Virus record (IMG/VR): IMGVR_UViG_3300042820_000065
Coordinates: 4,934 to 68,933 of that record
DNA: 64,000 nt
Direction: 5' to 3' (one strand)
Source of the DNA: a virus
Notes under the pieces: generated by a model
The model's input: the letters and a program-made list of their open reading frames with translations, nothing else
Database searches by the model: none
Told to the model about the DNA's origin: nothing
Position numbers and translations under genes: made by a program
Part shown: positions 1 to 51,620 of the stretch, one piece after another
Layout of the letters: each line of letters starts with the position of its first letter
Position numbering within the stretch: position 1 is the first letter of the stretch

Positions 1-872
1 AGGGCGAGTCCTGGCCCGCTCCGAACGATATCGGCCAGGTGCCTGCCTTCGAGTTGCCCAACAATCCGCGCCTTCTCATCGGCGGCCGGAGCGAATTGTT
101 CGACCTCTGCGACATCCAGGACCGGATCAACAAGACAATCGTTGACCGGCTGATGACGCAGGACTACGGCGCGTTCCCGCAGAAGTGGGCGACCGGCTGG
201 CCCGAAGAAGACCCGAGCGGCAACCCGACCCAGCGGATCGACGTCGGTCGGGACCGGATGATCACAACCGACGTGCCGGACACGAAGTTCGGCCAGTTCG
301 CTTCGGCCGCGCTCGATGGCTACCTGATGGGCAAGAAGGAGGACGTTCACGACATGGCGGCCCGGTCCCGGACGCCTGCTCAGTACCTCCTGGGCGAATT
401 CAGCAACGTGAACGGCGAGACCCTGAAGGCGTCAGAATCGGGGCTGGTGGCCAAGGTTCGGCAGCGGATGCGCGGCATGGACGACCCGACCGAGTCCGCG
501 ATGCGTCTCGCCCGGAAGTTGGCCGGTGAGACCGTTCCTGACGACGTCATGATGGAAATCATTTGGCAGAACCCGGAATTCAGGACTGAAGGGGAACTGG
601 TCGACGCCCTGACCAAGATGGCCACGCTCGCGGTGCCGAACGAGGTGCTGTGGGAGAAGTGGGGCGCCAGTCCGCAGGAGATCGGCCGGTGGAAGGCGAT
701 CAATGAGGAAGAGGCCCAGAAGGCCGCCGCGAACGACGCCACTGCTCTCCTGGCCGACTCCTACCGGAAGAAGGCTGCTGGCGTCGGATCGAGCGCGCCG
801 GGCCAGGGCGCCAGCCCGGCTCGCGGGTCGCAGGGCGGAGCCAGTAACGCCCCGAAGAAGCCCGCCGCCTGA
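1..872 (+). CDS. Portal protein, C-terminal part (SPP1 gp6-like); 5'-truncated by the window edge
   Basis: Frame is open from base 3. Sequence (DIQDRINKTIVDRL..AFPQKW..IWQNPEFRT) resembles actinophage portals. First gene of the head module; TGA overlaps the next ATG. Confidence 0.8.
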   Translation, partial: GESWPAPNDIGQVPAFELPNNPRLLIGGRSELFDLCDIQDRINKTIVDRLMTQDYGAFPQKWATGWPEEDPSGNPTQRIDVGRDRMITTDVPDTKFGQFASAALDGYLMGKKEDVHDMAARSRTPAQYLLGEFSNVNGETLKASESGLVAKVRQRMRGMDDPTESAMRLARKLAGETVPDDVMMEIIWQNPEFRTEGELVDALTKMATLAVPNEVLWEKWGASPQEIGRWKAINEEEAQKAAANDATALLADSYRKKAAGVGSSAPGQGASPARGSQGGASNAPKKPAA

Positions 873-2998
873 TGGCCTTCTCGCTCGGTGCTGCGGCCGT
901 AGCCGTCGCGACGTCGCATCAGGCCGACATGAATGGGATCCGGGCCGTGCAGTTGGCGAAAGCGATTCGGGCCTTCCGGGATCTCGATCCTGACCACCCG
1001 ATCAAGTCGTGGATCGAGAACGTCGGCGAGCGGGTATACGTCGCCGTCTCCAGCGGCCAGGAAGCGGCGGCCGGACGGGCGGCTGACTACACCCGGCGGG
1101 CCCTGCTCGTGCAGCATCTCGATGCGATTCTGCCGGACATCAACGCCGAGAATTTCGCTGGTATCGCTTCCGACGGACGAGACATGGAGAGCCTGCTCGC
1201 CGGTGCCGCGATTCGGGTCAGTCAGGGCAAGCGGAAGGGCATGAGCAACGCGCAGGCGATGCAGGCTGGCGAGAATTGGCTCCGAATGGTCGTCTCGACC
1301 CAGATTCAGGACGCGGGTCGAGCGGCCGATTCGGTTGGTGTGGCCACGGCCGACGTGCGCCAAATGACGAGCGATGAGGTGCGGCAGCAGGCCGTTCGAG
1401 ACGGCCTGAGCGACCGGGAGAGGCTGTTGCGGCAGTTGCGTGATGCTCGGTCCACGACTGCCCTTTCTCCCTCGCGACAGGCCGACGTGGCGCGGCGGAA
1501 GCAGGAGACCCTGGATCGGATCGCTCGCAATCGAGCAGATCGACAGGCCGCTAAGAAACCGCCACCGGCCAAGATGATCGACCGGAAGCGAGTCGAGATC
1601 GGGTACATACGACTCCTGACGCCACCGTCGTGTGCCCGCTGCGTCATCCTGGCCGGGAGGTTCTATCGCTGGTCTGATGGCTTCAAAAGGCATCCGAACT
1701 GCTTCCCAGCCGGAACGATCGTCTCGGGACCGCACGCCCTAGCGGCCACGAGGCGGTGGTACGAGGGCGAACTCGTTACCATCCGCACTACCGGCGGAAA
1801 GGAGTTGTCCGTTACCGCCAATCACCCGATACTCACTGAGCGGGGTTGGATTCCGGCGACGTTCCTCCACGAAGGCGACCGCGTAGTCAGCAGCGACCGG
1901 AGTCAGGGCGCTACGCCCCTCGTAGTCCCAGACGAAAAGCAAATCCCAACCAAGATCGAGGATCTCGCTGGTCCGCTCGGCATGGCTCGTTTTAGCCGAG
2001 TGCCAACCACCCCCAAGGACTTCCATGGCGATGGGTACGACGGCGAGGTCGACGTTGTACTTACCGATAGATTTCTGGGGAATCGGTATCAGTCCTCGTT
2101 CCCGAAGCCAGACGGAGAACTTGCGCTCGCCTTCCGAGTCGTAGCCTCCGCGCTGCTCTCTTCCGAGCGACTTTTCGACGAGCCTCTCACGCGAGTGCTT
2201 CACTCCGCGCACTGCGTCGTGAGCAGGGGAGGATTGAGCGAGACGTTCAGCCGGAGTCATTCGGGACGCTCTAGTTTTCCCGGCGGCCGAACGGTTTCTG
2301 ATTTCGACACCGTGCTCCAGCAGGCGACGGCGGATTACGTTTCGACTCACTCCGTAGGAGGCGGCAATGACCAACTCGCTTTCGCCGGAGGCGTATCGCT
2401 CGACTACTCCCTGAACGTCAAGGGTGATCTCTCGCCTCGGTGGGATGCCCCGACGGGTCCTCTCTCGGTGGAAAACGCTAGTGGATATTCCAGTCGCGGC
2501 TTGGGTCTCAGCGAACGGCTCGCCGAGCAGGTATCGCTCGATTGCATCGTCGAGGTCACTAGGAATCGTTGGTCTGGCCATGTCTACAATCTGACGTCAT
2601 CGGAGGGCTGGTTCGCTGCCAACGGCATCATAGCATCGAATTGCGACTGCGTACACATTCCTGCCGTTCGGGACGTCGCTGACGACATCGCGACGGATCC
2701 GAAGCAGTACTTCAATTCGCTGTCCGAAGCGGAGCAGGACCGTCAGTTCGGGAAAGCGAACGCACAGGCCATTCGGGATGGTGCGTCCATCGGCAAGGTC
2801 GTGAATGCGCAGTCCGGAATGTATACGGCCGACGACGGAAAGCGCTACACGAACGTCGGAACGAAGAAGACGCGCAGGGGTCCTCGCGGGGGTCCGCCCG
2901 TTCTGAGGCCGACCGTGTGGCAAATCTATAAGGATGCACAGGGCAACCGCGAGCGTGCTAAGTCACTCTTGAAGTCGTACGGATACACTTCCAACTGA
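872..2998 (+). CDS. MuF-like minor head/capsid maturation protein, intein-containing (about 394 aa after splicing)
   Basis: Lies between portal and scaffold. CARC...HPN|CDCVH motif is rebuilt when residues 277-590 are removed. Confidence 0.85.
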   Translation: MAFSLGAAAVAVATSHQADMNGIRAVQLAKAIRAFRDLDPDHPIKSWIENVGERVYVAVSSGQEAAAGRAADYTRRALLVQHLDAILPDINAENFAGIASDGRDMESLLAGAAIRVSQGKRKGMSNAQAMQAGENWLRMVVSTQIQDAGRAADSVGVATADVRQMTSDEVRQQAVRDGLSDRERLLRQLRDARSTTALSPSRQADVARRKQETLDRIARNRADRQAAKKPPPAKMIDRKRVEIGYIRLLTPPSCARCVILAGRFYRWSDGFKRHPNCFPAGTIVSGPHALAATRRWYEGELVTIRTTGGKELSVTANHPILTERGWIPATFLHEGDRVVSSDRSQGATPLVVPDEKQIPTKIEDLAGPLGMARFSRVPTTPKDFHGDGYDGEVDVVLTDRFLGNRYQSSFPKPDGELALAFRVVASALLSSERLFDEPLTRVLHSAHCVVSRGGLSETFSRSHSGRSSFPGGRTVSDFDTVLQQATADYVSTHSVGGGNDQLAFAGGVSLDYSLNVKGDLSPRWDAPTGPLSVENASGYSSRGLGLSERLAEQVSLDCIVEVTRNRWSGHVYNLTSSEGWFAANGIIASNCDCVHIPAVRDVADDIATDPKQYFNSLSEAEQDRQFGKANAQAIRDGASIGKVVNAQSGMYTADDGKRYTNVGTKKTRRGPRGGPPVLRPTVWQIYKDAQGNRERAKSLLKSYGYTSN
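1700..2641 (+). mobile_element. Intein (314 aa) in the MuF-like gene
   Basis: Block A CFPAGT at 1700, block B VTANHP, block F/G HVYNLT..ANGIIASN ending at 2641, followed by Cys+1. Flanking exteins rejoin as HPNCDC. Confidence 0.93.
1739..2581 (-). CDS. Putative homing endonuclease (2 HTH-like repeats + Vsr/DUF559-type nuclease), encoded antisense inside the intein
   Basis: 280-aa ATG ORF. C-terminal SEGE..QKSIGKYNVDLAV..IAMEVLGGGWH..LGWDLLFVW matches the DUF559/Vsr pattern. N-terminus has two IERYxxGE..GIS..V.RR..G[IV] repeats. Confidence 0.85.
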   Translation of the reverse strand: MARPTIPSDLDDAIERYLLGEPFAETQAATGISTSVFHRERTRRGIPPRREITLDVQGVVERYASGESELVIAASYGVSRNVIRRRLLEHGVEIRNRSAAGKTRASRMTPAERLAQSSPAHDAVRGVKHSRERLVEKSLGREQRGGYDSEGERKFSVWLRERGLIPIPQKSIGKYNVDLAVVPIAMEVLGGGWHSAKTSHAERTSEILDLGWDLLFVWDYEGRSALTPVAADYAVAFVEERRRNPTPLSEYRVIGGNGQLLSAGSADGNEFALVPPPRGR

Positions 2999-3033
2999 TA
3001 GGCCAGCGCGAGGCTGGCACCCCATAGCAACGG

Positions 3034-3786
3034 ATGGCGCGAGGCCACCCAACTTTCGAGGAAGCAGAGACGTCCATGTCGATGTCGTTGGTACGCAAGA
3101 CGCTCTCCCCGATCGGATCCAGGCGGGACGGAAGTCTCATTTGGCCGGTCTTCGGCGCTGAAGGTGAAGGCGACGGAGGTGGGGATGGAGGCGAAGGCGG
3201 GACCGGCGATGGGAACGAGGACGACGATGGCGATTCGGAAGACGAGGACGGCGTGCTCGGTGACGCAGGTAAGGCTGCGGTCGAGCGTGAGCGCAAGGCG
3301 GCCGACCGGCTCCGCAAGAGCCTGAAGCCTTTTGCGCAACTGCGTAAAGAGACCGGGATGACGGTCGAGGAGATGCGAGAGCGCCTGCTCGGGAGTGGTT
3401 CTGGTGGATCGAACGGCAAGGGCGGCAAGGCCGATGGCGATTCGGCGGACGCGGAAGCGATCCGGCGCGAGGCGACCATCAAGGCCCAGGAGAAATCCGA
3501 TGCTCGCTACCGAAAGATGGCCGTCAAGGCCGAAGCGGTGGCATTGCTCAACGATCCTGACGACGCACACCGATACCTCGACCTGTCTTCGTACGAGGTG
3601 GACGACGACGGCGAAGTCGATTCCCGGGCAATCAAGCGGGACTTGAAGGCGCTGATCGAAGACCGCCCCTATCTGGCGAAGACGAAGAAGGCCACCGACT
3701 ATGAGGGCGGACCTCGCGGCTCCTCCGCCAAGAACGAAGGCGGAATGAGCGAAATCATCCGTCGTCAGGCCGGGTACATCCGATAG
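3034..3786 (+). CDS. Capsid scaffolding protein (alternative start 3076)
   Basis: Acidic Gly/Asp-rich N-region, then a coiled-coil-like body and a basic C-terminus. Directly upstream of the major capsid gene. Confidence 0.8.
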   Translation: MARGHPTFEEAETSMSMSLVRKTLSPIGSRRDGSLIWPVFGAEGEGDGGGDGGEGGTGDGNEDDDGDSEDEDGVLGDAGKAAVERERKAADRLRKSLKPFAQLRKETGMTVEEMRERLLGSGSGGSNGKGGKADGDSADAEAIRREATIKAQEKSDARYRKMAVKAEAVALLNDPDDAHRYLDLSSYEVDDDGEVDSRAIKRDLKALIEDRPYLAKTKKATDYEGGPRGSSAKNEGGMSEIIRRQAGYIR

Positions 3787-3840
3787 TTCCCGCTCACCAC
3801 TGCGGGGCTATCCCGTCCGGACCTTTTGGAGGTTCCAGTG

Positions 3841-4872
3841 GTGAACGTGATGTCGACTCCGATCGGCTACCGGCGCAACGGTATGCCGATCTTCGGAGTC
3901 TCCGGTGGGGCGTACAACGCCGTCACCACTCGTACCGACGTCGGCGCGCTGATCCCTGAAGAGGTCAGCAATACGATGCTCGGCAAGGCCACCGACGGTT
4001 CGGCCACGCTCGCGCTGTTCGGGTCGATTCCCGTCGGCCGGGCTCAGGTCCGACTGCCCGTCCTGGCCAGCCTGCCCGTCGCCTACTGGGTCACCGGCGA
4101 CACCGGCCTCAAGCAGACGACCGAGATCTCGTGGGCCAACAAGTACCTCAACATTGAAGAGATCGCCGTTATCATGCCGGTCCCAGACAATGTCCTGGCC
4201 GACGTTGAGGTCGACATCTGGGACGAGTCGATGCCCCTGATCGCAGAGGCTTTCGGCCGGACCCTCGATGCTGCGGTCTTCTTCGGGGCTGCTGCTCCCG
4301 CCTCGTTCCCGACCAACGTCACCGCCGCCGCGCTCGCTGCTGGCAACACGGTCGACGTCGGTACCAACGCCACGGCGGCCGGTGGTTTCTTCGGTGACAT
4401 CGACGACCTGTACGGCAAGATCGAACAGGACGGTTTCGAGGTCTCCGGCTTCGTCGGCCCGACGTCGCTGAAGGCGAAACTGCGGAAGGTTCGCGGAACC
4501 GACGGCCGGAAGTTGGACGAGGGCCGGACATCCGGCGACCTGCGGTCTCTCGACGGCTACCCGATCTCCTACTCCATGAAGTCGATGTGGCCGCTGGCCG
4601 GTGGCGCTGGCGTCAACGGCGTCCAGGCCATCGCTGGCGACTGGAGTCAGTTCGTCGTCGGCGTCCGGCAGGACATCACGATGAAGATCCTGACCGAGGC
4701 CGTCATCCAGGACAACACGGGCGCGATCGTGTTCAACCTGGCGCAGCAGGACATGACGGCCGTCCGGCTCACCTTTCGGGCGGGCTGGCAGGTCGCCAAC
4801 ACCATCAACAACGAGAACATGGTCGAATCGACCCGTTACCCGGCGGGCTACCTCCGAACGGTTGGTGCATAA
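3841..4872 (+). CDS. Major capsid protein (HK97 fold)
   Basis: GGAGG at 3828-3832 favours GTG at 3838/3841. GALIPEEV, AYWVTG..KQTT, EEIAVI and GDWSQ..GVRQDI are typical HK97-type capsid motifs. Confidence 0.92.
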   Translation: MNVMSTPIGYRRNGMPIFGVSGGAYNAVTTRTDVGALIPEEVSNTMLGKATDGSATLALFGSIPVGRAQVRLPVLASLPVAYWVTGDTGLKQTTEISWANKYLNIEEIAVIMPVPDNVLADVEVDIWDESMPLIAEAFGRTLDAAVFFGAAAPASFPTNVTAAALAAGNTVDVGTNATAAGGFFGDIDDLYGKIEQDGFEVSGFVGPTSLKAKLRKVRGTDGRKLDEGRTSGDLRSLDGYPISYSMKSMWPLAGGAGVNGVQAIAGDWSQFVVGVRQDITMKILTEAVIQDNTGAIVFNLAQQDMTAVRLTFRAGWQVANTINNENMVESTRYPAGYLRTVGA

Positions 4873-5279
4873 TGCCTGATTCCTCTCCGCTCGTCAGGAC
4901 CGTCGAGGTCGAACTCCCGGCCTCGACCATCCTGGCTACCACGTCCGAGAATGTTCGGTCGCCGTTCGCCGGGACCGTGCAGGCCGTTCGGTATCTGCCG
5001 CTGGCCTCGGTCACCGGCGCGGCGTCGCCGTCCAGCCGGACCTTGTCGCTGGTGAACCGGGGCCAGGACGGCAGCGGCTCGACCGTTGTCGCTTCGCTGG
5101 CCCTGGTCGCCACGGTCAACCTCGTCGCGTTCGACGAGAAGACCATCACGCTATCGGCTGTCGCCGGTGCGACCACCGTTGCCGAGGGTGACGTTCTGGA
5201 GTTCCGGTCGGCCGCTGTCGGCGGTACCGGACTGGTCGAGGGTGGCGGCACTGCCATCGTCGAGATTGCGAGGGTGTAA
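4872..5279 (+). CDS. Virion protein, possible capsid decoration
   Basis: TAATG coupling to the capsid gene; beta-rich, 135 aa. Confidence 0.5.
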   Translation: MPDSSPLVRTVEVELPASTILATTSENVRSPFAGTVQAVRYLPLASVTGAASPSSRTLSLVNRGQDGSGSTVVASLALVATVNLVAFDEKTITLSAVAGATTVAEGDVLEFRSAAVGGTGLVEGGGTAIVEIARV

Positions 5280-5587
5280 TGGTCGAGAAGAAGGACGTCG
5301 ATCCCCAGGGCCGGAAGGTCGATCCCGTGACCGGCAATGCCCGGCGCGTCTCGGGCAAGGACTCCGGCCTGCCCGCTGATGCGGTGGCCGAGCCCGCCAT
5401 TCAGGACCTCCACGACCAGATGGCGCTCGAACGCGAGCAGGGATTCCGTGGCGAGCCTGCGGACCCGACTCCGAACGAGCACTACACCGTGGCGGGCGTG
5501 CTCGACCCGAGCAAGCACGTTCCGGAAGAGTTCAAGCAGCAGACCGGCGTTCGGGTCATGCCGGACCCGAACTACGGCCAGAAGTAG
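5279..5587 (+). CDS. Hypothetical protein
   Basis: Translationally coupled 102-aa ORF in the head operon. Confidence 0.55.
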   Translation: MVEKKDVDPQGRKVDPVTGNARRVSGKDSGLPADAVAEPAIQDLHDQMALEREQGFRGEPADPTPNEHYTVAGVLDPSKHVPEEFKQQTGVRVMPDPNYGQK

Positions 5588-5599
5588 GAGGTCGCGCCA

Positions 5600-6067
5600 G
5601 TGTCCTACCCGGTGACTCCAGCCGATGTGGTGGCTCGCTGGCGCGCGCTTTCTGACGACGAGACGGCGGTCGCAGCAGTTCTTATCGACGATCTGTGTTC
5701 GGATCTCGATCTGCTGCGACCGTCTCTCGCTGCGGTTTTCGCCGACGCGACCGATCCTGAACTGACGGTCCTCAGCAAGACCGTCGTCCGCGTGGTAGCG
5801 CTGGCCGTGAAGCGGGCAATGCGCAACCCAGACACCCTCTCGTCCACAAACATCTCGGCCGACGGCGGGATTGCAGTTGGCTACGACAACCGGATCGAAG
5901 ACCTGAAGTCGACGAGCGCTTACCTCTCGAATGAGGATCTGGCCCTGATCGACCGGGCCATCGCGGTCGTTACCGGCGATGTCTACTCCAGCGTTCGATC
6001 CGTGAAACTGCTCGCGAATTCGCAGTACTATCCGCCCGGCGACCTGACCATTCTTCCGACACCGTGA
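5600..6067 (+). CDS. Head-to-tail adaptor
   Basis: GGAGG RBS. PVTPADV.ARWRAL..VV..AVKRAMRNPD pattern of actinophage adaptors; expected position. Confidence 0.75.
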   Translation: MSYPVTPADVVARWRALSDDETAVAAVLIDDLCSDLDLLRPSLAAVFADATDPELTVLSKTVVRVVALAVKRAMRNPDTLSSTNISADGGIAVGYDNRIEDLKSTSAYLSNEDLALIDRAIAVVTGDVYSSVRSVKLLANSQYYPPGDLTILPTP

Positions 6068-6075
6068 GGAACGAA

Positions 6076-6753
6076 ATGAACCACGAGATCAAGCCTTCCG
6101 GTCGACTGTCCCTGAAGAAGATCACCGTCCCGAAGCGGCCGAGCATCAACAGCATTAAGGACGCGATGCGCTACGGCTCCTCTCGTACGCGCTTGACGCG
6201 GCTCGGCCGGTGGCAGCACGAGAACCGTGAGAACTTCGAGCGGTCCCTGCACGATCAGGACCTTTTCGACCGGGGGCGACTCTTCGCCATCGGTCACCTC
6301 TGGCTCCAGAAGATCCGGCTCGATGGACTGGTCGAAGACTTCGGCTTGGTGTCGTGCCGCGTCGTGACCGACACCGGCGTGGCATTTATCGTGGACGCGT
6401 TCCAGAACCTCACGGAACTGGAGAACATGAAGTTCCACGCCCTTGGCACTGGCACCACGGCCGAAGCGGCGAGCCAGACCGCTCTCGTAACGGAACTGAC
6501 GACCCAGTACGCGGTTTCGTCGACACGCCCGACCGGAACGCTCGGCGAGAAGTCCGGCGACGCGAAGACGTACGAAACTGCGGCGACCATCACCACTTCT
6601 GCGACCGTGGCCGCGACCGAGCACGCCATCATGAGCCAAGCCGCGACCGGCGGTGGCGTCATGCTCGACCGGAGCGTCTTCTCCGTCGTTAACCTCGCGT
6701 CCGGCGAATCATTGCAAGCCACGTATGATTTGACCTTCCCTTCGGGTTCGTGA
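6076..6753 (+). CDS. Virion structural protein (gene 1 of fibre-like cassette A)
   Basis: ALGTGTTAEAASQTALVTE motif is common in phage fibre/baseplate proteins. Confidence 0.55.
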   Translation: MNHEIKPSGRLSLKKITVPKRPSINSIKDAMRYGSSRTRLTRLGRWQHENRENFERSLHDQDLFDRGRLFAIGHLWLQKIRLDGLVEDFGLVSCRVVTDTGVAFIVDAFQNLTELENMKFHALGTGTTAEAASQTALVTELTTQYAVSSTRPTGTLGEKSGDAKTYETAATITTSATVAATEHAIMSQAATGGGVMLDRSVFSVVNLASGESLQATYDLTFPSGS

Positions 6754-6802
6754 CCATCATGCACTAGCGTTGGCCATGATCCGACCCGCGTGGAGGTGAA
6801 AC

Positions 6803-7873
6803 ATGACCGGTACTGACCTGATGCCCAGTGGTGCCGTCATGGACACCTTTACGGGCGCGAACAACGCGGCACCGGATACGACCAACTGGTCGATGTCGTA
6901 CAACACCGGTGCAGCATCGGCGATTTCGATCCAGAGCAACCAATGCCGCCTGCGTACGGGGGCGACGAATGGCAACCGCATCTCAATGCGGCTACTCACG
7001 GCCTCTGTCTTGGGCATGGAGGTGCTGTTCGACTGGGTCGTTACGTCTTCGGGTAGTTCGGTCCCGGCCGTGTGGTTTCATACCGGCACGACGCAGGACA
7101 CGGCATACGGTCACTACTTCACTCTGAGCGATGCCGGAATGGACGTTGGGTATTCGACCGTAGCCAGTCCATACAACACCGTTGGCATCGGTAGTTATAG
7201 TCATGGATTTGTGGTCGGACAGGCCGTCAGGACGCGCATCGCTTGCTTTACTTCAGGCAGCGTAACGACGTTGAAGGCTCGGACGTGGCTTCAGTCCGGA
7301 ACCGAGAACACGAACGTATGGCAGATAAGCACTACTGATGCGCACGTTCTGACTGGCGGATATACCGGTCTGACTCACGCATCATTCAGCGCTGGGTCGA
7401 AAGACTTCTTCATCGACAACTTCGATGCCTGGGACACGGAAACCCCTACGGCGAAGACGATCGCGGTCGGTGGCTCGATCACGGTGACCGGAGCGCTGGT
7501 CAAGTCGATGCCGAAATTGTTCTCCGGCTCGATCACGGCGACTGGGGCACTGGCCAAGACTCGTGTCGTAGTGCGGGCTTTCTCCGGCTCGATCACGGCG
7601 ACCGGGACCTTCAGCAAGTTCGCGCGAAAGAAGTTCGCCGGATCAGTGATCCCGTCTGGACTCTTCGCGAAGCGGACCGGCAAGGTGTTCTCCGGCTCGA
7701 TCACGGCGACCGGGACCTCCAGCAAGTTCGCGCGAAAGAAGTTCGCCGGATCAATCACGGCCGTCAGCGACCTGACCCTCATGTCTCTGGGGCGAATCTT
7801 CGGCGTTCCTGGCATTGTTGTGGTTACGGTCCGAAAGGCCGGGGAACTGCGGGCCAGATTCAGGAGGACGTGA
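6803..7873 (+). CDS. Repeat-containing fibre-like protein (gene 2 of cassette A)
   Basis: GGAGG RBS. Beta-sandwich-like N-domain followed by about six (F/V)xGS(I/V)TxTG repeats. Confidence 0.6.
   Translation: MTGTDLMPSGAVMDTFTGANNAAPDTTNWSMSYNTGAASAISIQSNQCRLRTGATNGNRISMRLLTASVLGMEVLFDWVVTSSGSSVPAVWFHTGTTQDTAYGHYFTLSDAGMDVGYSTVASPYNTVGIGSYSHGFVVGQAVRTRIACFTSGSVTTLKARTWLQSGTENTNVWQISTTDAHVLTGGYTGLTHASFSAGSKDFFIDNFDAWDTETPTAKTIAVGGSITVTGALVKSMPKLFSGSITATGALAKTRVVVRAFSGSITATGTFSKFARKKFAGSVIPSGLFAKRTGKVFSGSITATGTSSKFARKKFAGSITAVSDLTLMSLGRIFGVPGIVVVTVRKAGELRARFRRT
7580..7753 (+). repeat. 66-bp direct repeat (7580-7645 and 7688-7753, 1 mismatch)
   Basis: ttctccggctcgatcacggcgaccgggacct(t/c)cagcaagttcgcgcgaaagaagttcgccggatca occurs twice, 108 bp apart. 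The first 23 nt also occur at about 7520. Confidence 0.9.
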
Positions 7874-8166
7874 TGGCCAGTTCGGATTACTACGAGGGCC
7901 AGCGCGCTCTGATCGAAGCCGAGTTCCGGCTCCTGGGCGTGCCGACGGACCCGACCATCATCCAGGTCATATCTCGCTCGCCGAGCGGCTCCGTCTCCGT
8001 CTTGACGTATCCAGCGGTCGAGTTGACCAGGCGTGACACCGGCCTGTTCGAGGCATCCGTGCTGCTCGGCGATTCCGGCCAGTGGCACTTCCGTGTCATC
8101 GGCGAAGGTGTTGTCGATGCGGTCACGGAGATCAATCTGGATGTTCTGCAATCGAATGTTGTCTGA
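7870..8166 (+). CDS. Small beta-rich virion protein (gene 3 of cassette A)
   Basis: 98 aa, coupled to the upstream gene, Ig-like pattern (TGLFEA..GQWHFRV.G.G). Confidence 0.5.
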   Translation: MMASSDYYEGQRALIEAEFRLLGVPTDPTIIQVISRSPSGSVSVLTYPAVELTRRDTGLFEASVLLGDSGQWHFRVIGEGVVDAVTEINLDVLQSNVV

Positions 8167-8177
8167 GAGGAAATGAA

Positions 8178-8366
8178 ATGGCCAAGCAGGAAGCCCCGCT
8201 CGAACAGCCGACTCCAGCACCGGAGCCGGTCAAGGATAAGTCCGGCGTGCATGACGGCCCGCTGCGTGACGTCGTCGCCGAGCCGTATCCCGACCGGCCG
8301 TACAGGGATGCTGTCACTCCCGAACACCTTGAAGCACTGAAGGCCGCAGGGCAGGAGCCTCGCTGA
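8178..8366 (+). CDS. Hypothetical protein
   Basis: GAGAGG RBS; 62 aa. Confidence 0.5.
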   Translation: MAKQEAPLEQPTPAPEPVKDKSGVHDGPLRDVVAEPYPDRPYRDAVTPEHLEALKAAGQEPR

Positions 8367-8367
8367 A

Positions 8368-8733
8368 ATGTCTATCATGTCGATCGTCGCCTCCGGACGT
8401 CGCCTGATCGCAACGTCGTTTCTCGACGAGGCGTACATCAGCGACCGTACGGTGGTGAAGGATTCGACTGGTGGGACGAAGCAGACCTGGATCGAACGGC
8501 CTGATCCGGTATTGAGCCGGTTCGTCGCTCTGTCCGACGATATCGCCGAGCAAGCCAACGGTACCGAATTCGGCCAGGCGACAGCGATGTGGCTGGCTCC
8601 GCTCGGAACGGATGCCGCCGAAGGCGACAAGATCCGCAATCCGATCGACGGTGGAATGTGGATCGTCACGCGCGACATCACGCCCCCGTCGAATCTAGCG
8701 ATCAGCGTCCGACTCGGGATCAGGGAGGTGTAG
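8368..8733 (+). CDS. Head-closure (stopper) protein
   Basis: DSTGG.KQTW..; size and position match SPP1 gp16-like proteins. Confidence 0.7.
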   Translation: MSIMSIVASGRRLIATSFLDEAYISDRTVVKDSTGGTKQTWIERPDPVLSRFVALSDDIAEQANGTEFGQATAMWLAPLGTDAAEGDKIRNPIDGGMWIVTRDITPPSNLAISVRLGIREV

Positions 8734-8735
8734 AC

Positions 8736-9092
8736 GTGCCGATCCGAATTCGCGTTGTCTACAACAAACTGCCGAAGATCATCGACGCGCTTCCGGTGAA
8801 CATCGACAAGGAAGTGAACGACGCAGCCACGGATATCGCGGACGTCCTGAAATCCCGCCTGTGGGTCGACACTGGAACGCTTCGTCGCGTAACGACCGAC
8901 TTCACGCCAGGCTTCAACCATGCCGAGGTGTGGATCGGTTACTACCTGGGCAAGGGGTTCTACTCCGGCTTCCAGGAGTGGGGAACGGTGAAGCAGGACG
9001 CGCGTCCGATCGTCGGTCCGACGGCTCACCAGTACGAGACGGTTTACGCCTCGAACATGGAGAAGGCCGTCCGAAAGGCGTGTGGGACGTGA
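8736..9092 (+). CDS. Neck/tail-completion protein (HK97 gp10-like)
   Basis: VDTGTLR and Y.GFQEWGTVKQ.ARP motifs; GGAGG RBS. Confidence 0.75.
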   Translation: MPIRIRVVYNKLPKIIDALPVNIDKEVNDAATDIADVLKSRLWVDTGTLRRVTTDFTPGFNHAEVWIGYYLGKGFYSGFQEWGTVKQDARPIVGPTAHQYETVYASNMEKAVRKACGT

Positions 9093-9532
9093 CGGTTTAC
9101 GACGCGGGCGAGACTGTCGACCTTATCGAGCCGTGGATTTACGCGTCTCTCCTGGCCGACTCCGACCTGATGGATCTCGTTGGCGTGGGGTCGATTTCGG
9201 GCACCCTGTCGGTCGGTGATCTAGAACCGCCCTACGTCACGTTCCTGAACCAGGACAGCCGGGACATCGTCGGAAATGCCGGGCTGATCATCTCGACATC
9301 CAATCTGTACGCGATCAAGGCGGTGGCTCGGACCGGTTCATGGGATGACGTCCGTCCGATCGCGGCCAGGATCAAGGCCCTGTTTCACCTCCCCGGCCGA
9401 GAAGTGATGGTTCCCGGCGGCAGCCTCACGAGCAATCGTGAAATATTGATCAACTACGCCGAGATCACCGAAGGCGTGCAGTATCGACATCTCGGAGCGG
9501 TCTTTCGTATCCGGGCCTCAAGAGACGAGTGA
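9089..9532 (+). CDS. Tail terminator protein
   Basis: Position; PPYVTF motif and C-terminal YRHLG..FRI. Confidence 0.65.
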   Translation: MTVYDAGETVDLIEPWIYASLLADSDLMDLVGVGSISGTLSVGDLEPPYVTFLNQDSRDIVGNAGLIISTSNLYAIKAVARTGSWDDVRPIAARIKALFHLPGREVMVPGGSLTSNREILINYAEITEGVQYRHLGAVFRIRASRDE

Positions 9533-11097
9533 TGATGAAGAAGATCAGCCCGTGGACCGGCGGCTTCGTCGCCGTGGCTGCGCTGTGTCTCGTCGGGACG
9601 GTGGCGTTCGCGGACGTCAATTCTCCCGATGGTTCGACGGCAGGAATCACGAATCCGACCCAGCAGCAGGCGCTCGATGCGAACGACACCGTCCGCAACT
9701 ACATCAACGCCCATCCTGACGCGCCCGACCCGACGACCCCTCCGGCGACAACGACCACGACGAGCAGCCCGACTCCGACCACCGACACCACGCTGCCTTC
9801 AAATTTTAAGGCGACGGCCGGTGATCAGAAGATCGTCCTGACGTGGGCGAAGCCGCTGGGCGGCACACCGACCGGATACATCTACGGTCGGGGCGGAGTC
9901 GACTCGACGGGCTACGGCCAGTACGACTCGCCGGTTCAGCCCGCCACGACGCTGACCGTCACGCTCGACAAGTTGCTCAACAACACGTCGTATCCGGTCT
10001 ATGTCGAGGCGGTGTATTCCACTGGGAACAAACGTGTCTCGCTTTCCGCTACTCCGAAAGCCACGGCCACCCCGACCGCAACCGCGACTCCCACGGCCAC
10101 AGCAACCACGGCCAGTCCGAGTCCGGCCGTAACGACGACGCCTTCGAGCGGTGGGCGAGTTTCCGGTCTGGCATGGAGTTCTGGCGTCTGGAACGACCAG
10201 GACCCAACGCAGACGGGACGTTTCGTTTCGACCGTACGCGGCGGCAAGAACGTCGACAACATTCTCGTCTACACCACGCGGACGAACCTCGCGGCCGAGA
10301 ACAACCCGACCGCATGGCGCGCCGCCCTTCCATCGACCTTCAATGGCGTGAACCAGGACATCGTTCTGGCCGTCACGACGTGGACGTCGGATGGTGCGTT
10401 CATGACGCAGGCACAGGGCCAGGCCATCGGAGCGTCGCTCTGCACGGTTGATGCGACCACGCCGAAGGTTCGGCTCGACTGGGAGATGAACCTGACCGAT
10501 GGCGCTGGATCGAACGGCGCGGCATTGACGGCCAGCAACTACGCGGCCTGGGTTGCTCGATTCCGCGCTGTCGCAACGGGAATGAAGGCCGGTTGCGCCG
10601 GACTTCAGATCGACTTCAACCCGAACCACGGAGCCGATCAGACGGCCGGTTGCAACACGAGCCCGGTCACGAGCATGTGTACCAGGCGGGCATTTCAGTC
10701 ATTGAAGGACGTCATCGACATCTACGGAATCGACACCTACGATTCCTACCCGCCGGTCAAGGCCGACAACTCGGGATGGGGCACGCGGACCAACGCGGCG
10801 AACACGAACGAGTTGGAGAATGCTCGCGCGTACGCCGTTGCGAACGGGAAGAAGTTCTCGGTCCCGGAATGGGGTACGGCCTGTAACACGAGCGGCTGCC
10901 AGTGGTCCGGCAACGCAGGTGGCGACGATCCGAACTACGCGCACCAGATGCTCGCGTGGTTCAACGTCCATGCTTCCGACATGTCATACGAGACGTACTT
11001 CAATGAGCCCGCCTCGTATATCAATTCGGATCTGATCGACTCCAGCCCGAACACCCGGGCGCAGTATCGCTCGGACGTGCTCGCGCTGGCTACGTAA
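9529..11097 (+). CDS. Signal-peptide-bearing glycoside hydrolase (FN3-like + Pro/Thr linker + GH26-like domain)
   Basis: Hydrophobic N-terminus ending AFA-D. RLDWEMN (acid/base Glu), IDIYGIDTYD and KKFSVPEWG (nucleophile Glu) fit the clan GH-A pattern. Confidence 0.7.
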   Translation: MMMKKISPWTGGFVAVAALCLVGTVAFADVNSPDGSTAGITNPTQQQALDANDTVRNYINAHPDAPDPTTPPATTTTTSSPTPTTDTTLPSNFKATAGDQKIVLTWAKPLGGTPTGYIYGRGGVDSTGYGQYDSPVQPATTLTVTLDKLLNNTSYPVYVEAVYSTGNKRVSLSATPKATATPTATATPTATATTASPSPAVTTTPSSGGRVSGLAWSSGVWNDQDPTQTGRFVSTVRGGKNVDNILVYTTRTNLAAENNPTAWRAALPSTFNGVNQDIVLAVTTWTSDGAFMTQAQGQAIGASLCTVDATTPKVRLDWEMNLTDGAGSNGAALTASNYAAWVARFRAVATGMKAGCAGLQIDFNPNHGADQTAGCNTSPVTSMCTRRAFQSLKDVIDIYGIDTYDSYPPVKADNSGWGTRTNAANTNELENARAYAVANGKKFSVPEWGTACNTSGCQWSGNAGGDDPNYAHQMLAWFNVHASDMSYETYFNEPASYINSDLIDSSPNTRAQYRSDVLALAT

Positions 11098-11782
11098 TTC
11101 CGACAGGATTCGTCGGATCGTAGTCGCCGTAACGCCCGCCGTGCCGCTTCAGGTGACACGGCGGGCACACGGTAACCAGGTTGCCAAGAGCGTTGGCGGC
11201 CTTCCAGTCACCATCGAACGAACGAAGGGATTTGATGTGATGAACGTGCGGAGTCTGACCGTTCATCAAGTCAGCGTTGCAGTCGACGCATTTCCCGTTG
11301 TCGCGCGTGATGGCGAAGGCCCGCTGGATCTGCCAGTTCGGACCGTAGTAGAACCGGCCGGGCGTAGTGCCAGACTTGCTTTGGCCGTAGCAGAACGAGG
11401 AGCAGTGGACGCGTGGCCACGACTGATAGAACTGGAATCCCTTACCGCAGTAGGCGCAGATTCCATCAATCAATGTGGCTTTCGTTCGGCACTCGCGCGA
11501 GCAGTGCTCAACGTCGCGCCACGACGGAACCTCAAACTCCTTGTGACAACCGGGGCACGTCTTCGTCGTCCACTTCGATTCGTCACGCGGTCGACCTGTA
11601 CCGCACTGACGGGAGCAGAAACGACCGACTCGGCTTGCCTTGTCCTCGAACGTCTTTCCGCAGGTTTCACAAGCGCCAACCTTTCGTTGACCGGAGCGTC
11701 GACAAGCCATCGAGCAGTATCGTGGTGTTCGGTCGGTCCGATGGGTGAATGTGTTCCCGCAGTGATTACAGATGCTGTCCAT
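11090..11782 (-). CDS. Free-standing HNH endonuclease with tandem Zn-ribbon repeats
   Basis: Four CxxCGK.F....xCSxxC repeats. C-terminal CVDC..HVHHI..NLVTVCPPCH. Probable start ATG 11782. Confidence 0.85.
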   Translation of the reverse strand: MDSICNHCGNTFTHRTDRTPRYCSMACRRSGQRKVGACETCGKTFEDKASRVGRFCSRQCGTGRPRDESKWTTKTCPGCHKEFEVPSWRDVEHCSRECRTKATLIDGICAYCGKGFQFYQSWPRVHCSSFCYGQSKSGTTPGRFYYGPNWQIQRAFAITRDNGKCVDCNADLMNGQTPHVHHIKSLRSFDGDWKAANALGNLVTVCPPCHLKRHGGRYGDYDPTNPVGIT

Positions 11783-11825
11783 ACGGACAACGTTACCACA
11801 ACTAGTTACGAAGAAGGTGGACGAT

Positions 11826-12833
11826 ATCGCTGAGAGAAGTACGATCACCCAGAGTGTTCAGATCGGCGTGGAATCGGTTCCCGGAACTGCGGTCGCTGCG
11901 AACAAGCGGCTCGGCTCCATGGGTTTCTCGCTCGGCCCGGCGACCGACTTCAACGACCTGCGGCCGATCGGCCAGAAGTACCCGTCGCTTCAGATTCTCG
12001 GCAAGGAGTGGGCGGAGGCTGATCTCGACGGATCGCCGGTCTACACCGAACTGCCGTACGCCTTCGCCTCGGTCGTCAACACTCCGACCATCGTGGAGAT
12101 TCTGGACACGGCGATCCACACCGGTGCGTACCGCTGGACGTTCCAGTCGAACACCTTCGGCGATGACAGTCCGAAAACCTTCACGGTTGAACAGGGTTCG
12201 TCGTTCCGGGCCCATCGGGTGAGTAACTGTATCCTCACCGAGTACGGGATGAAGTGGAGCCGGGACGAGATCGAACTGGACGGCTCATGGCTGGCCAAGG
12301 CGATCGACGACGGCATCACGATGACGGCCAGCCCGACCCAGTTGCCGCAGATCCCGGTGAAGCCAGCCGACCTGTCGGTCTACCTGGATCCCGAGTACGG
12401 CGACATCGGGACCACGAAGATGCTCCGGGCCCTGAAGGGCGAATTTAACATTCAGGACCGGTTCGAGCCCCTGTGGGTGGTCGATGCGGCCCAGCCGTCG
12501 TTCGTCTCCACCGTCGAGGGCGAGCCGACCGTCGAATTCAAGATGACTCAGATGGCCGATGCTCAGGCGATGGCCAACCTGACCGCGATGCGCGGTGGCG
12601 TGACTCTGTTCCTTCGGCTCGAAGGCATCGGGCCGGTCATCTACACCCCCGCTTCGGGCGACCCGATCACCCACTCGGTGAAGATCGACATCGCCGGTCA
12701 GATCTCCGACATCTCCTCATTCGATGACGAGGACGGGGTCTACGCGATCGAGTGGACCTTCGGTGCGGTCCATGACCCGGGATGGGGCAAGGCGTTCAAG
12801 ATCGAGGTCGTTACGACCACGGCAACGCTGTAA
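11826..12833 (+). CDS. Major tail protein (start ATC 11826 or GTG 11817, uncertain)
   Basis: AERSTITQSVQIGVES.PGT N-terminus; located upstream of the chaperone and tape measure genes; followed by a terminator hairpin. Confidence 0.8.
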   Translation: MAERSTITQSVQIGVESVPGTAVAANKRLGSMGFSLGPATDFNDLRPIGQKYPSLQILGKEWAEADLDGSPVYTELPYAFASVVNTPTIVEILDTAIHTGAYRWTFQSNTFGDDSPKTFTVEQGSSFRAHRVSNCILTEYGMKWSRDEIELDGSWLAKAIDDGITMTASPTQLPQIPVKPADLSVYLDPEYGDIGTTKMLRALKGEFNIQDRFEPLWVVDAAQPSFVSTVEGEPTVEFKMTQMADAQAMANLTAMRGGVTLFLRLEGIGPVIYTPASGDPITHSVKIDIAGQISDISSFDDEDGVYAIEWTFGAVHDPGWGKAFKIEVVTTTATL

Positions 12834-44432: not shown

Positions 44433-44464
44433 CAACTCTTCTACAGGTGGTGCATACTGGTCAC
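44429..44464 (+). promoter_or_regulatory. Conserved phage promoter
   Basis: TTGACA-N18-CATACT-GGTCAC. Confidence 0.8.
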
Positions 44465-44495
44465 GCAAGCCAAGGCGAACTCAACGGAGGCCAGC

Positions 44496-44786
44496 GTGCA
44501 GATCCGCAACCGCAAGATTCGTCCCATCGCCCTCGGCTCGGCCGGGCTGGTCAGCCTCGTCGTGCTCCTTTCGGCGGGTTCCTGCGACAACAAGGTGTCC
44601 GAACCGTTCCACGACGCGCCGCGCTCGGCTCACGCCAACTCCGATCCGGCCACTGTGATCGAGATGCCGGACGGCTTCAGCAATCTGGCAACCAAGTGCA
44701 TCGCGCCCGGCATCAGGGGCACCGTCGTCTTCAAGAACGACCGATCCTACGGGTCCGTCTCGACCGTGATCGATCCGAAGTGCTGA
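44496..44786 (+). CDS. Putative lipoprotein
   Basis: Basic N-terminus, hydrophobic stretch, lipobox-like AGSC. Confidence 0.6.
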   Translation: MQIRNRKIRPIALGSAGLVSLVVLLSAGSCDNKVSEPFHDAPRSAHANSDPATVIEMPDGFSNLATKCIAPGIRGTVVFKNDRSYGSVSTVIDPKC

Positions 44787-44959
44787 ATGATCCCCTGCCC
44801 TACCCGACCGAGGAGGAATTCATGGGTGGCCTGTTCAAGTGCAACTGCGGCAACTCGTTCGACACGAACATCGAACTTCAATTCCATCGCAACAGCACGC
44901 ATCTCGCTTCAACGGTAGTTGCGCTGCCGAAGATCCTCTGGAAGCGGAAGAACCGCTGA
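44783..44959 (+). CDS. Small Zn-finger-like protein
   Basis: FKCNCG..F......H....H. Confidence 0.45.
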   Translation: MNDPLPYPTEEEFMGGLFKCNCGNSFDTNIELQFHRNSTHLASTVVALPKILWKRKNR

Positions 44960-45092
44960 TGGCCGATGACGGAGGCTACAAGGAGCAGACCTGGGTCGGC
45001 GGCAAGGCCGTCAAGACGAAGATCGTCCGCTCCATCCCGAAGACCCCGAAGCCGAAGATCGTGTTCGGGAAGAAGCGGAAGGGCTCACACTG

Positions 45093-45407
45093 ATGGACAA
45101 CGAAACGACGCTGGTCGCCGGAAAGATCCCGACGAACTGGTTCACGTCAAGGTCGGAGGAGCGGGCCCTGCGGTTCGTCTCGCACGAGGACCTGCTCGAT
45201 TCACCGAATGCGATCTACGTCCAGATCGTCAGGGACTCGTGGTGGTCAGTTCATCCGACACTCGGCTACATCTTCGCCGGGAAGTCGCCGCAGTGCAACG
45301 TAAGCAAGGTTCTCGCGAGACGGCTGACCGACAGGCTGTACCCAGGCGCCGACGTCCGCTTCGTGCATCGGGCTCTCGTCCCGATCGACCTTCGGGACTT
45401 TCTGTGA
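45093..45407 (+). CDS. Hypothetical protein
   Basis: Coupled ORF, 104 aa. Confidence 0.5.
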   Translation: MDNETTLVAGKIPTNWFTSRSEERALRFVSHEDLLDSPNAIYVQIVRDSWWSVHPTLGYIFAGKSPQCNVSKVLARRLTDRLYPGADVRFVHRALVPIDLRDFL

Positions 45408-45535
45408 ACCGCTGCGAGGTCTGTGACTATTCCCTGGCCCGGCACCTGGTCTGCGGCATGCAGGTCTGCGGCGAGCACATCTGGGCGGCCGTGGAGACGT
45501 CTCTCACCCGGGACCCATACGTCTCCGTTGCAGAG

Positions 45536-45570
45536 TTGACAACTCCGCCCAGTTAGTGCATAATGGTCAC
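45536..45570 (+). promoter_or_regulatory. Conserved phage promoter (leaderless)
   Basis: TTGACA-N17-CATAAT-GGTCAC-ATG. Confidence 0.85.
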
Positions 45571-45655
45571 ATGGGCGAAGACGAAGCCCTACGAGAGATC
45601 GTCGGGAAGATCTCGTTCCGCAACTGAATCATTCCTCGGACAGGAAGAGGTCCCC

Positions 45656-45988
45656 ATGGGAACCAAGACCGCTGGCGAGCGCTCGCACCTCACGATCGTC
45701 AACTCCGACCCGGCCAACATTCTGACCGGCGTCTCCATCCAACTCGCCATCGTCTCCGAGGCGCAGCGTCGCCCGCACCTGATGGACGGGATCTCGACGG
45801 TCCAGTGGAATCGTGACAACGGCGTGTCCGTCCTGGTGAACGACGCCGGGATCCGGCAGCACCTCGCGAACGCGCTGGGTTTCGAGCCGAAGGTCGAAGA
45901 GTACGGCATCCGGGAACTCGGAACCGGGTTCGCCCGGACCGGTGAGATGGCCGGTGTGCCGGTCATGATCTGGAACGTGGAAGCGTAA
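45656..45988 (+). CDS. Hypothetical protein
   Basis: GGAAGAGG RBS. Confidence 0.55.
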   Translation: MGTKTAGERSHLTIVNSDPANILTGVSIQLAIVSEAQRRPHLMDGISTVQWNRDNGVSVLVNDAGIRQHLANALGFEPKVEEYGIRELGTGFARTGEMAGVPVMIWNVEA

Positions 45989-46620
45989 TGCTCGGCCGCA
46001 CCCACATGCTCGGCGGCGTCGTCGCCTGGGAACTGGTCGCTCCGGCCGTCCCGGCACCGGCGGCCGTCCGGGTCGTGGGTGCGGCCTTCGCGTTGTGGGG
46101 ATCCCTCGGGCCGGACATGGATCACGTCCACTCAACCTGGTCCAACTCGTTCACCGGCGGGCCGTGGATTGCCAAGCGTCTCGGCAGGGCTGTCGGTGGG
46201 CACCGGCAGGGGACGCACAGCCTCCTCTCGATCCCGCTGTCCGGCCTGATCGTGCTGGGTCTGCTCCTCCTGGCCGAGCCTTTCATCGCCCTGCCGCAGG
46301 CCGCCCCGGTCGCCTGGGCCGTCGCTTTCTCCGTTGGCTGGACAAGTCACATCCTGGAAGACATGCTCACTGTGCAGGGAGTCGGCATCCTCTACCCGAT
46401 GACGAAACGTCGGATCAGGGTCGGTAACCTGCGCACGTCGAAAGATCGTCGCCACCTCAACTTCGGCGAGCGGCTGGTGTTCGTCACGCTGGCTGCAACC
46501 GGGTTGCTGATGGCATTGAGCATGCTCGGAGGATTCATTGACCAGACCGGACGACACGCCCCTCTCGATCACGGCGGCAGCGCTGCAAGCCGCATCGGCA
46601 CACTGCCTGCACAACCGTGA
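45988..46620 (+). CDS. Membrane metal-dependent hydrolase (YdjM-like)
   Basis: GRTH, GPDMDH, HRQGTHSLL and SHILEDMLT..G motifs. Confidence 0.82.
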   Translation: MLGRTHMLGGVVAWELVAPAVPAPAAVRVVGAAFALWGSLGPDMDHVHSTWSNSFTGGPWIAKRLGRAVGGHRQGTHSLLSIPLSGLIVLGLLLLAEPFIALPQAAPVAWAVAFSVGWTSHILEDMLTVQGVGILYPMTKRRIRVGNLRTSKDRRHLNFGERLVFVTLAATGLLMALSMLGGFIDQTGRHAPLDHGGSAASRIGTLPAQP

Positions 46621-47931: not shown

Positions 47932-47989
47932 GACCGACTCGATCGACGGCGCTTAGGATTCGCACAGCGGTAGGTCGTACCATGCGCTC

Positions 47990-48871: not shown

Positions 48872-49144
48872 TCCTGCCCTATGTGGGGGTCGCTGCTGAA
48901 ATGGCATGACGAAGGCCCGGACGATTGGAAACCGTCCGGGCCTTCTGCTATTTCAGGATGTCCAGGGATCGTTGTCCCATGGGTCGGATGGGCCAGGTGC
49001 CCACGGGCCAGTGGCCTGTGCCTTTCGGCCGAAACAGGCTCTCGGCCAGGCCGGGTATGTCGTGGCCAGCCTCTCGCTCGCAACGCCAGCCGCCGGATTC
49101 CGTTGCGACGCAGCGCTTCGGAAGTCGGCGCTCGAATCGGAAAC

Positions 49145-50865: not shown

Positions 50866-50901
50866 GTGACCATCATACACCAAACGACTCGTGGTTTACA
50901 A
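50866..50901 (-). promoter_or_regulatory. Conserved phage promoter
   Basis: TTGTAA-N18-TATGAT-GGTCAC. Confidence 0.75.
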
Positions 50902-51591: not shown

Positions 51592-51620
51592 GAAACAGTC
51601 GCCCTGCTGCTGATCTCCCA

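Follow-up and report, generated by a model that had tools for sequence, protein, structure and literature searches.

How can an intein be mobile when its own polypeptide carries no endonuclease? This question is raised by a 64,000-nucleotide (nt) stretch of viral DNA, positions 4,934 to 68,933 of IMG/VR record IMGVR_UViG_3300042820_000065, which is here called the window (the whole stretch that was analyzed) and which comes from a virus record of 76 kb that is 98% complete. Within the window, a MuF-like minor capsid gene contains an intein of 314 amino acids (aa), and the strand opposite this intein carries an open reading frame (ORF) for a putative nuclease. An earlier inspection of the letters alone, without database searches (the sequence-only reading), had proposed that homing is supplied by this separate antisense gene. 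The analysis described here leads to the same answer: the locus is very probably a mobile class-1 intein in a MuF-like gene whose homing endonuclease (HEN) is encoded by a separate gene on the opposite strand. Support comes from substitution patterns in the antisense frame and from predicted folds, from which endonuclease activity and homing are inferred. The sense strand is organized as follows, where dN/dS is the ratio of nonsynonymous to synonymous substitution rates and AF2 is AlphaFold2.

1700..2641, plus strand: class-1 intein, 942 nt / 314 aa, recognized by Cys1, block B T39..H42, block F His294 and the terminal Ser-Asn314
1700..1975, plus strand: N-terminal HINT splicing domain, residues 1-92, with blocks A and B (AF2, dN/dS)
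1976..2446, plus strand: sense read-through of the antisense gene, residues ~93-249, an open and unstructured linker (AF2, dN/dS, no Pfam domain)
2447..2641, plus strand: C-terminal HINT splicing domain, residues ~250-314, with blocks F and G (predicted local distance difference test score, pLDDT, 74-98)

The intein lies exactly where the sequence-only reading had drawn it, with splicing blocks at both ends. At the N-junction, CAT CCG AAC is followed by TGC at 1700-1702 (...KRHPN|CFPAGT...), and at the C-junction AAT at 2639-2641 is followed by TGC GAC TGC (...NGIIASN|CDC...), which makes Cys the +1 residue. Block B reads T39-A-N-H42-P. Residues T39, H42, P43, G49, and N314 are invariant in 66 intein homologues, more than 90% of which have Cys1 (a few have Ala1), and the +1 Cys is found in each complete homologue with an aligned C-junction. 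The penultimate residue is Ser here and His in many relatives, and Ser in place of His is a known and tolerated variation among inteins. In addition, the intein frame has no internal stop in any of 80 distinct homologues. Pfam recognizes Intein_splicing/HINT alone in the sense frame (Intein_splicing with E 7e-7, under the curated gathering cut-off), and the claim that the middle of the intein has neither LAGLIDADG nor HNH motif was borne out, as no domain of either kind was found by Pfam in this frame.

The sense intein was modelled by AF2 with the 66 homologues. The N-terminal HINT half has pLDDT values of 81-97 (residues 1-70) and 85 (residues 81-90), and beta-rich segments are predicted at residues 1-65 and 278-313 (pLDDT 84-98). 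The middle stays below 50 at residues 93-122, 124-140, and 160-244, so no endonuclease fold is predicted in the sense frame. By its nucleophile, block B, C-terminal Asn with +1 Cys, and modelled HINT fold, the 314-aa insert is a class-1 intein. A separate observation concerns the first residue: in five related loci (L034, L035, L038, L048, and L049), Ala stands as intein residue 1 (...HPNG[RK]|AE[LVI]...) and the terminal HN|C is kept, and these inteins may splice in a class-2-like manner without the first acyl shift.

On the opposite strand, the 280-codon ORF predicted by the sequence-only reading lies wholly inside the intein, with the following parts.

1739..2581, minus strand: putative homing-endonuclease gene, 280 aa plus stop, nested in the intein and codon-aligned with it (ORF, homology, dN/dS, AF2)
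2207..2581, minus strand: DNA-binding region, two helix-turn-helix (HTH) modules and a helical linker, HEN residues 1 to ~125
1787..2143, minus strand: Vsr/DUF559-like PD-(D/E)xK nuclease domain, HEN residues 147-265
2048..2050, minus strand: codon of the invariant Asp178 (YNVD), putatively catalytic, Val in the sense frame; matched in 3hrl by the Asp of YIVD
2021..2023, minus strand: codon of the invariant Glu187 (AxEVxGG), putatively catalytic, Phe in the sense frame; matched in 3hrl by the Glu of IVEADGG

The antisense ATG at 2579-2581 is read from the same base pairs as its reverse complement, the in-frame CAT codon of block-F His294, which sets the two frames in codon alignment, and about 840 bp of the locus is read on both strands. 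The overlap extends into block B, as had been noticed before, with antisense EYRVIGG mirroring sense TANHPIL; the final 63 residues of the nuclease domain lie opposite the folded HINT residues 30-92, block B included. D178 (in YNVD) and E187 (in AMEVLGG here) are invariant in 78 sequences and present in the window copy, and their conservation and alignment with 3hrl suggest a catalytic role.

Several lines of evidence agree with the previously suggested HTH repeats and DUF559/Vsr-like nuclease. The window protein alone gives weak Pfam matches to HTH_58, HTH_23, and MTES_1575; across the antisense family, MTES_1575 is matched by 49 of 78 sequences, HTH_7 by 32, and DUF559 by 16. A sequence profile of the family matches 3hrl with E 4.5e-6. 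The AF2 model of the antisense protein, built on the 78-sequence alignment, reaches a mean pLDDT of 91.2, and its N-terminal helices are similar to resolvase, Tc3, and Pax-type HTH modules. Foldseek searches with the whole two-domain model gave weak matches (best E 4e-3), and the Vsr match was clear only with a second aligner. Taken together, the model and the family matches support a protein predicted to fold as HTH modules plus a Vsr-like nuclease. The window protein is 57-61% identical to its nearest relatives over its full length.

Long antisense frames are common in DNA of this composition, and it must be asked whether the ORF is a gene at all. The window holds 29 minus-strand open frames of at least 250 codons, and the length of the ORF is not significant by itself because a window with a guanine plus cytosine (GC) content of 63% is rich in such frames. 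The neighboring frame at 761..1735 on the minus strand, a 324-aa ORF that is codon-aligned antisense to the MuF N-extein, lacks an antisense selection signal; it is a typical high-GC ghost ORF and serves as a negative control for the adjoining nuclease gene. The antisense ORF in the intein is a real gene by homology, selection, and structure rather than by length. When the loci are aligned by codon, variability peaks at sense position 3 in the exteins and in both splicing domains, and between about 1900 and 2545 it peaks at sense position 1, i.e., antisense position 3. In the same region, amino-acid identity is 0.27-0.66 for the antisense frame versus 0.17-0.29 for the sense frame in most bins; over the read-through segment (1976-2446), the sense values are 0.17-0.22. 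The dN/dS values of both frames were calculated by the Nei-Gojobori method from 22 phylogenetically independent pairs; values of overlapping frames are mutually dependent, and only the contrast among the following regions is informative.

Intein middle: sense 0.88, antisense 0.32
N-terminal splicing domain (1700-1888): sense 0.24, antisense 0.79
C-terminal splicing domain (2582-2641): sense 0.09, antisense 2.04
Exteins: sense 0.33, antisense 1.17

This contrast supports purifying selection on the antisense frame in the intein middle. A further signal is seen in codon choice. In each of the 24 loci whose GC is at most 0.62, the nuclease gene is completely free of TTA, CTA, and TCA codons, and the chance of such absence, given the Leu and Ser codon usage of each phage, is as low as 2e-10 in L048, 8e-8 in L059, and 5e-6 in L034 and L038. 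The absence of these codons from the nuclease gene argues that the intein frame is held open by selection and translated as one chain. With the codons of the two strands in register, each stop on one strand faces a single TTA, CTA, or TCA codon on the other, and therefore synonymous choice alone suffices to keep both frames open; judged from the genetic code, this suggests why the -1 frame is always seen.

The same arrangement is widespread. A tblastn search with the antisense protein found relatives in 128 phage records, whose hosts include Gordonia, Salmonella, Escherichia, Shigella, Pseudomonas, Klebsiella, Vibrio, Acinetobacter, Haemophilus, and Aggregatibacter; those of the matching genes that have an annotated function are labelled as head-morphogenesis or MuF genes, and many are called 'hypothetical protein'. 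The best relatives in phage databases are those of Gordonia phages (tblastn E 1e-45 for Malisha and 2e-38 for Vivi2), located on the opposite strand of MuF genes, with 37-39% HEN identity. At least 542 IMG/VR loci encode a relative of the nuclease, as do 23 loci in bacterial genomes or metagenome-assembled genomes of Actinomycetota, Burkholderiales, Acidobacteriota, Bacteroidales, Chloroflexota, Firmicutes, Myxococcales, Planctomycetota, and Gammaproteobacteria. A profile search of 1.84 billion representatives gave 1692 clusters (50% identity) at E<=1e-30. In all 109 loci examined by DNA, the nuclease ORF is nested in an opposite-strand open frame, codon-aligned, and inside a MuF intein. The GC content of the loci with this nested architecture ranges from 0.41 to 0.74 (for example, 50% in Salmonella phage vB_StyS-sam), and since it goes down to 0.41, the arrangement is present even at compositions at which chance does not produce antisense ORFs. 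Close relatives of window positions 1-12000 were not found among phage records by megablast, and blastn with the intein gave short patches only.

Some loci are unusual or poorly annotated. A contig of a nanopore-type metagenome (L007:3860-5059) encodes three HTH modules, a 70-residue Cys-rich C-terminal extension, and an atypical N-extein context; frameshift errors are possible in an assembly of this type, and the locus was kept out of the interpretation. In Streptomyces phaeochromogenes (L006:3788-5668), the annotation calls the antisense gene alone, and the 626-aa MuF/intein ORF is missing. In vB_StyS-sam (L003) and other Jersey-like phages, the nuclease is uncalled or fragmented, and the MuF gene appears under the labels head morphogenesis protein, structural protein, and NAD+--asparagine ADP-ribosyltransferase.

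Putative expression signals of the nuclease gene share DNA with splicing motifs, and two such positions were recognized.

2586..2598, minus strand: Shine-Dalgarno (SD) position, antisense of block-F Asn-Leu, degenerate in the window copy: TCAGATTG
2627..2635, minus strand: putative extended -10 element TGCTATGAT in block-G Ile-Ile-Ala (ATC ATA GCA), from conservation across loci

In each of the 73 scorable loci, the nuclease gene starts exactly opposite the block-F His codon, with CAT read as ATG in 54 loci and CAC as GTG in 19 on the antisense strand. GGAG, GAGG, or AGGA occurs 5-17 nt upstream of the start in 56 of the 73 loci, versus 7.1% of antisense extein windows; this SD motif arises from the block-F Asn-Leu codons, where Leu is CTC in 59 of 73, AT-rich phages included. 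Similarly, a TANNNT hexamer lies at -51 or -54 in 53 of 70 loci, versus 0.29% of codon-aligned extein positions. Phages of lower GC usually have a perfect extended -10 element here, TGnTATAAT, which the block-G codons ATT ATA xCA produce, and high-GC phages have TACAAT or TACGAT, formed through rare GTA, ATA, or CTA codons in 35 of 49 loci (background usage of NTA among Ile, Val, and Leu codons in high-GC loci is 6.6%). Such conservation suggests a promoter and SD role for the signals in blocks F and G. The phage also has an early-promoter motif of its own, the 15-nt GTGCATRATRGTCAC, with 17 matches at <=3 mismatches versus 3.7 expected (6750-6764 on the minus strand plus 16 sites within 44450-63795); one perfect copy lies shortly downstream of the head genes, and no copy of the motif was found near the intein.

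Mobility was best seen in the Jersey-like phages. Among 349 Jersey-like records matching the MuF gene of vB_StyS-sam, 58 match over at least 80% of the query and hence bear the intein, and the others that were sampled give mostly extein-only matches, in which the matched span equals the gene length minus the intein. Salmonella phage T102 has a precise empty site (...PPAHPN|CRSTTAPV...) where vB_StyS-sam has a 272-aa intein, and the exteins of the two are 94-96% identical (one empty allele was compared base by base). As judged from these sequences, the presence/absence pattern is as expected of a homing element. Several synonymous differences were observed at the junctions of L003 and L112 (for example, CAT CCT AAT vs CAC CCT AAC; CGT TCA ACT ACA vs CGG TCG ACC ACG), and such differences between Jersey-phage alleles with and without the intein could reflect co-conversion tracts or target-site variation affecting cleavage. 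A different stage is represented by a prophage of Dubosiella newyorkensis (L101:2501-3319), in which the nuclease frame is broken, with a 141-aa open stretch, and the opposite intein/MuF frame is open for 804 aa; by its sequence, the endonuclease seems to be decaying inside an intein that can still be translated, as in the decay phase of the homing cycle.

RNA evidence was obtained from a soil metatranscriptome run containing contigs identical to window positions 1641-2011, 1991-2184, and 2271-2595. No joint skipping the insert was found in these contigs across 1641-2595, and therefore the insert is not an intron. Contig depth is 3-6 over the portal and MuF genes and 18-22 over the scaffold and capsid genes (3040-5667, scaffold/major capsid region), which suggests that the phage of the window was transcriptionally active in the soil sample, with the high late-gene expression that would be expected.

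Based on these data, the following course may be proposed. On the sense strand, a 708-aa precursor would be translated straight through, and residues 1-92 and ~250-314 of the intein would form the HINT domain around a disordered read-through loop of ~157 residues. An acyl shift at Cys1, attack by the +1 Cys, and cyclization of Asn314 would then release a 394-aa MuF-like head protein. On the antisense strand, the -10 box in block G would direct transcription, and translation would begin at the ATG at 2581, yielding the HTH-HTH-Vsr nuclease. In a mixed infection, this enzyme would cleave an intein-free MuF allele close to HPN|C, and during repair the intein and its nuclease gene would both be copied into the cut allele. 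A broader view, which we regard as rather probable, is that the locus belongs to an ancient and tightly integrated two-strand unit extending far beyond actinophages, rather than to an endonuclease that happened to enter an intein in reverse, with a complete antisense expression cassette written in splicing-motif codons; its range would include phages of enterobacteria, Pseudomonas, Vibrio, and Acinetobacter as well as prophages of Firmicutes, Bacteroidota, Chloroflexota, Acidobacteriota, and others.

Several points weigh against the proposal of a homing intein with an antisense endonuclease gene. What was observed is anatomy, selection, folds, signal conservation, and polymorphism, and it is from these that splicing, antisense transcription, translation, cleavage, and homing are all inferred. 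The mutual dependence of dN/dS values in overlapping frames, as mentioned above, counts here too, and the phylogenetic relatedness of the loci inflates the binomial P values. In the window copy itself, the SD match is poor and the -10 box is TATGAT instead of TATAAT; a generic sigma-70 scan, which needs a -35 box, and a terminator scan found nothing in 1500-3100. The presence/absence polymorphism was seen in family members, and a close intein-less allele of the window phage was not found in phage databases, so that the case for recent mobility does not extend to the window copy. Finally, the RNA data are stored as contigs in which strand and transcript ends are unreadable, so that they speak for presence in an RNA library only.

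Some of these points fit an explanation in which the family is real and the window copy is a decaying or silent relic, that is, an intein that splices beside a nuclease that is poorly expressed or silent and does not home. We consider this unlikely. The degenerate SD, where 56 of 73 relatives have one of the purine-rich motifs (GGAG/GAGG), a -10 box one mismatch off consensus, the failure to find a near-identical copy in a divergent extein or a close empty allele, and the decay known from the Dubosiella prophage all agree with it, but the ORF is intact and full-length, no invariant or nearly invariant residue is missing, and the 57-61% identity to the nearest relatives runs along the whole length. 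Moreover, Actinobacteria frequently have leaderless mRNAs or weak SD sequences, which also counts against a relic. It is also improbable that the nuclease serves the phage instead of, or besides, homing, either by interference against the MuF gene of co-infecting phages or as a DNA-binding regulator. A competitive weapon would explain the presence/absence polymorphism equally well, and the two to three HTH modules in the protein would suit a regulator; nevertheless, all 109 loci have the gene within an intein at one and the same MuF site and nowhere else, as a homing partnership predicts, and cleavage of a rival's empty allele is mechanistically the same as homing.

The two remaining explanations question the arrangement itself. 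A fractured gene, in which a split intein would be trans-spliced and the endonuclease gene would lie between its halves, could be considered because Vsr-like endonucleases were first tied to inteins in a split arrangement (Dassa et al. 2009, PMC2677866). This is very improbable here, as the sense frame is uninterrupted in all complete inteins examined and spans the nuclease match in every one of the 109 loci, the avoidance of TTA, CTA, and TCA (P down to 2e-10) holds that frame open, and internal start and stop signals are not needed. Still less credible, to the point that we give it almost no weight, is the idea that the antisense ORF is no gene but a by-product of high GC together with mirror conservation of the sense protein. 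It is true that many long antisense frames exist at 63% GC, that a 324-aa ghost ORF lies directly upstream, and that in block B the antisense EYRVI.G mirrors the sense TxxHPxL, where sense selection is dominant; however, in the intein middle the selection signature is antisense, the ORF is kept in phages of 41-50% GC, the family matches MTES_1575, DUF559, and HTH_7 in Pfam, and the nuclease-fold model at pLDDT 91 stands opposite an unstructured sense middle. A homing intein served by an opposite-strand nuclease gene is therefore preferred over each of these explanations.

The host gene and its parts are given below.

872..2998, plus strand: MuF-like minor capsid / head morphogenesis gene, encoding the 708-aa precursor (ORF list)
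872..1699, plus strand: N-extein, 276 aa, C-terminal ...KRHPN (sequence, phrog_1522 match)
2642..2998, plus strand: C-extein from CDCVHIPA, with the +1 Cys nucleophile, stop codon included (sequence, phrog_1522 match)

The gene stands in the order portal (3-872), MuF (872-2998), scaffold (3034-3786), and major capsid (3826-4872). Both the N- and the C-extein match phrog_1522 (E 3e-36 and 3e-13, respectively), and the N-extein is similar to MuF-like minor capsid proteins of Arthrobacter phages; the closest MuF homologue in phage databases, gp4 of Arthrobacter phage Bridgette (413 aa, ~41% identical), is intein-less. The sequence-only reading had pointed to a lower GC content inside the intein. 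Its line figures are right (51.7% at 2041-2100 and 71.7% at 1381-1440), but they reflect local noise, since the intein as a whole has 60.5% GC compared with 59.4% for the C-extein and 62.6% for the window; low GC as a sign of foreign origin was thus rejected.

The locus is of broader significance in several respects. It displays a clear division of labour, in which one strand stays open and supplies the splicing blocks and the other supplies the folded enzyme, and it supports the view that splicing came first and that a free-standing endonuclease invaded the intein later. If functional, the conserved promoter, ribosome-binding site, and start within splicing-motif codons would be regulatory signals overprinted on a catalytic protein motif. 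From a practical standpoint, annotation pipelines mishandle such loci, either calling one of the two genes or labelling MuF as protease or ADP-ribosyltransferase, and the family could yield new long-target Vsr-type nucleases as well as inteins that tolerate a disordered insert of 150 residues.

Compared with known systems, the window shares some features with each and all of its architecture with one. In canonical bifunctional inteins such as PI-SceI, HINT is likewise interrupted between blocks B and F by endonuclease DNA with a homing cycle; there, the endonuclease is within the intein polypeptide, whereas here this position is taken by a non-folding read-through loop. The family of Vsr-like homing endonucleases goes back to Dassa et al. 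(2009, PMC2677866), who defined it from examples in split inteins, in introns, and as free-standing genes; I-Bth0305I was characterized later by Taylor et al. (2011, PMC3239194). Members of this I-Bth0305I/Vsr-like family, to which the window nuclease has ~20% sequence identity, reside in group I introns, stand free, or lie on the same strand between split-intein halves, in contrast to the antisense position in a contiguous intein found here. The fractured genes of Dassa et al. also combine an intein and a separately translated Vsr-like HEN at one phage locus; however, the intein is split there, and here the sense frame is open through the HEN gene. Opposite-strand endonucleases of another type, the antisense LAGLIDADG endonucleases in inteins such as Synechocystis DnaX and others, are credited to Gorbalenya 1998 and Gogarten 2002 in a recent preprint (bioRxiv 10.1101/2025.01.02.630785). 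Compared by description, they resemble the window in having a contiguous intein with an opposite-strand endonuclease ORF between the splicing blocks, but the nuclease is LAGLIDADG instead of Vsr/PD-(D/E)xK and the host genes are different. Antisense endonucleases are not mentioned in Kelley et al. 2016 (PMC5050341) or Gosselin et al. 2023 (PMC9957025).

The closest known system is described in the same preprint, by Gosselin, Arsenault, and Gogarten, which reports inteins with an antisense VSR-like HEN, named 'VSR -1 ORF', in MuF-like minor capsid proteins of actinobacteriophages. Its supplement lists under 'minor capsid, MuF-like, VSR -1 ORF' the Gordonia phages Malisha (gp5), Vivi2 (gp14), Angelicage, Affeca, and Fosterous, which are also the phages that match the window best in phage databases. 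The architecture of the window is thus already described for actinobacteriophages, and the sequence-only reading, which mentioned reports of out-of-frame endonucleases in actinophage inteins, was right to suspect a further example instead of a new class. Spread beyond actinophages, frame-specific selection, stop-mirror avoidance, and start/SD/-10 signals were not found in the main text and sections of the preprint that were covered, and within these limits the wide spread, the frame-specific selection, the stop-mirror avoidance, and the overprinted start/SD/-10 cassette appear to be novel beyond the searchable literature. With the 'VSR -1 ORF' inteins, the window shares homology, an antisense -1 HEN ORF in a contiguous intein, and an unfolded HEN region in the sense frame; it differs from them by sequence divergence only, and extends this type of intein to an uncultured soil phage.

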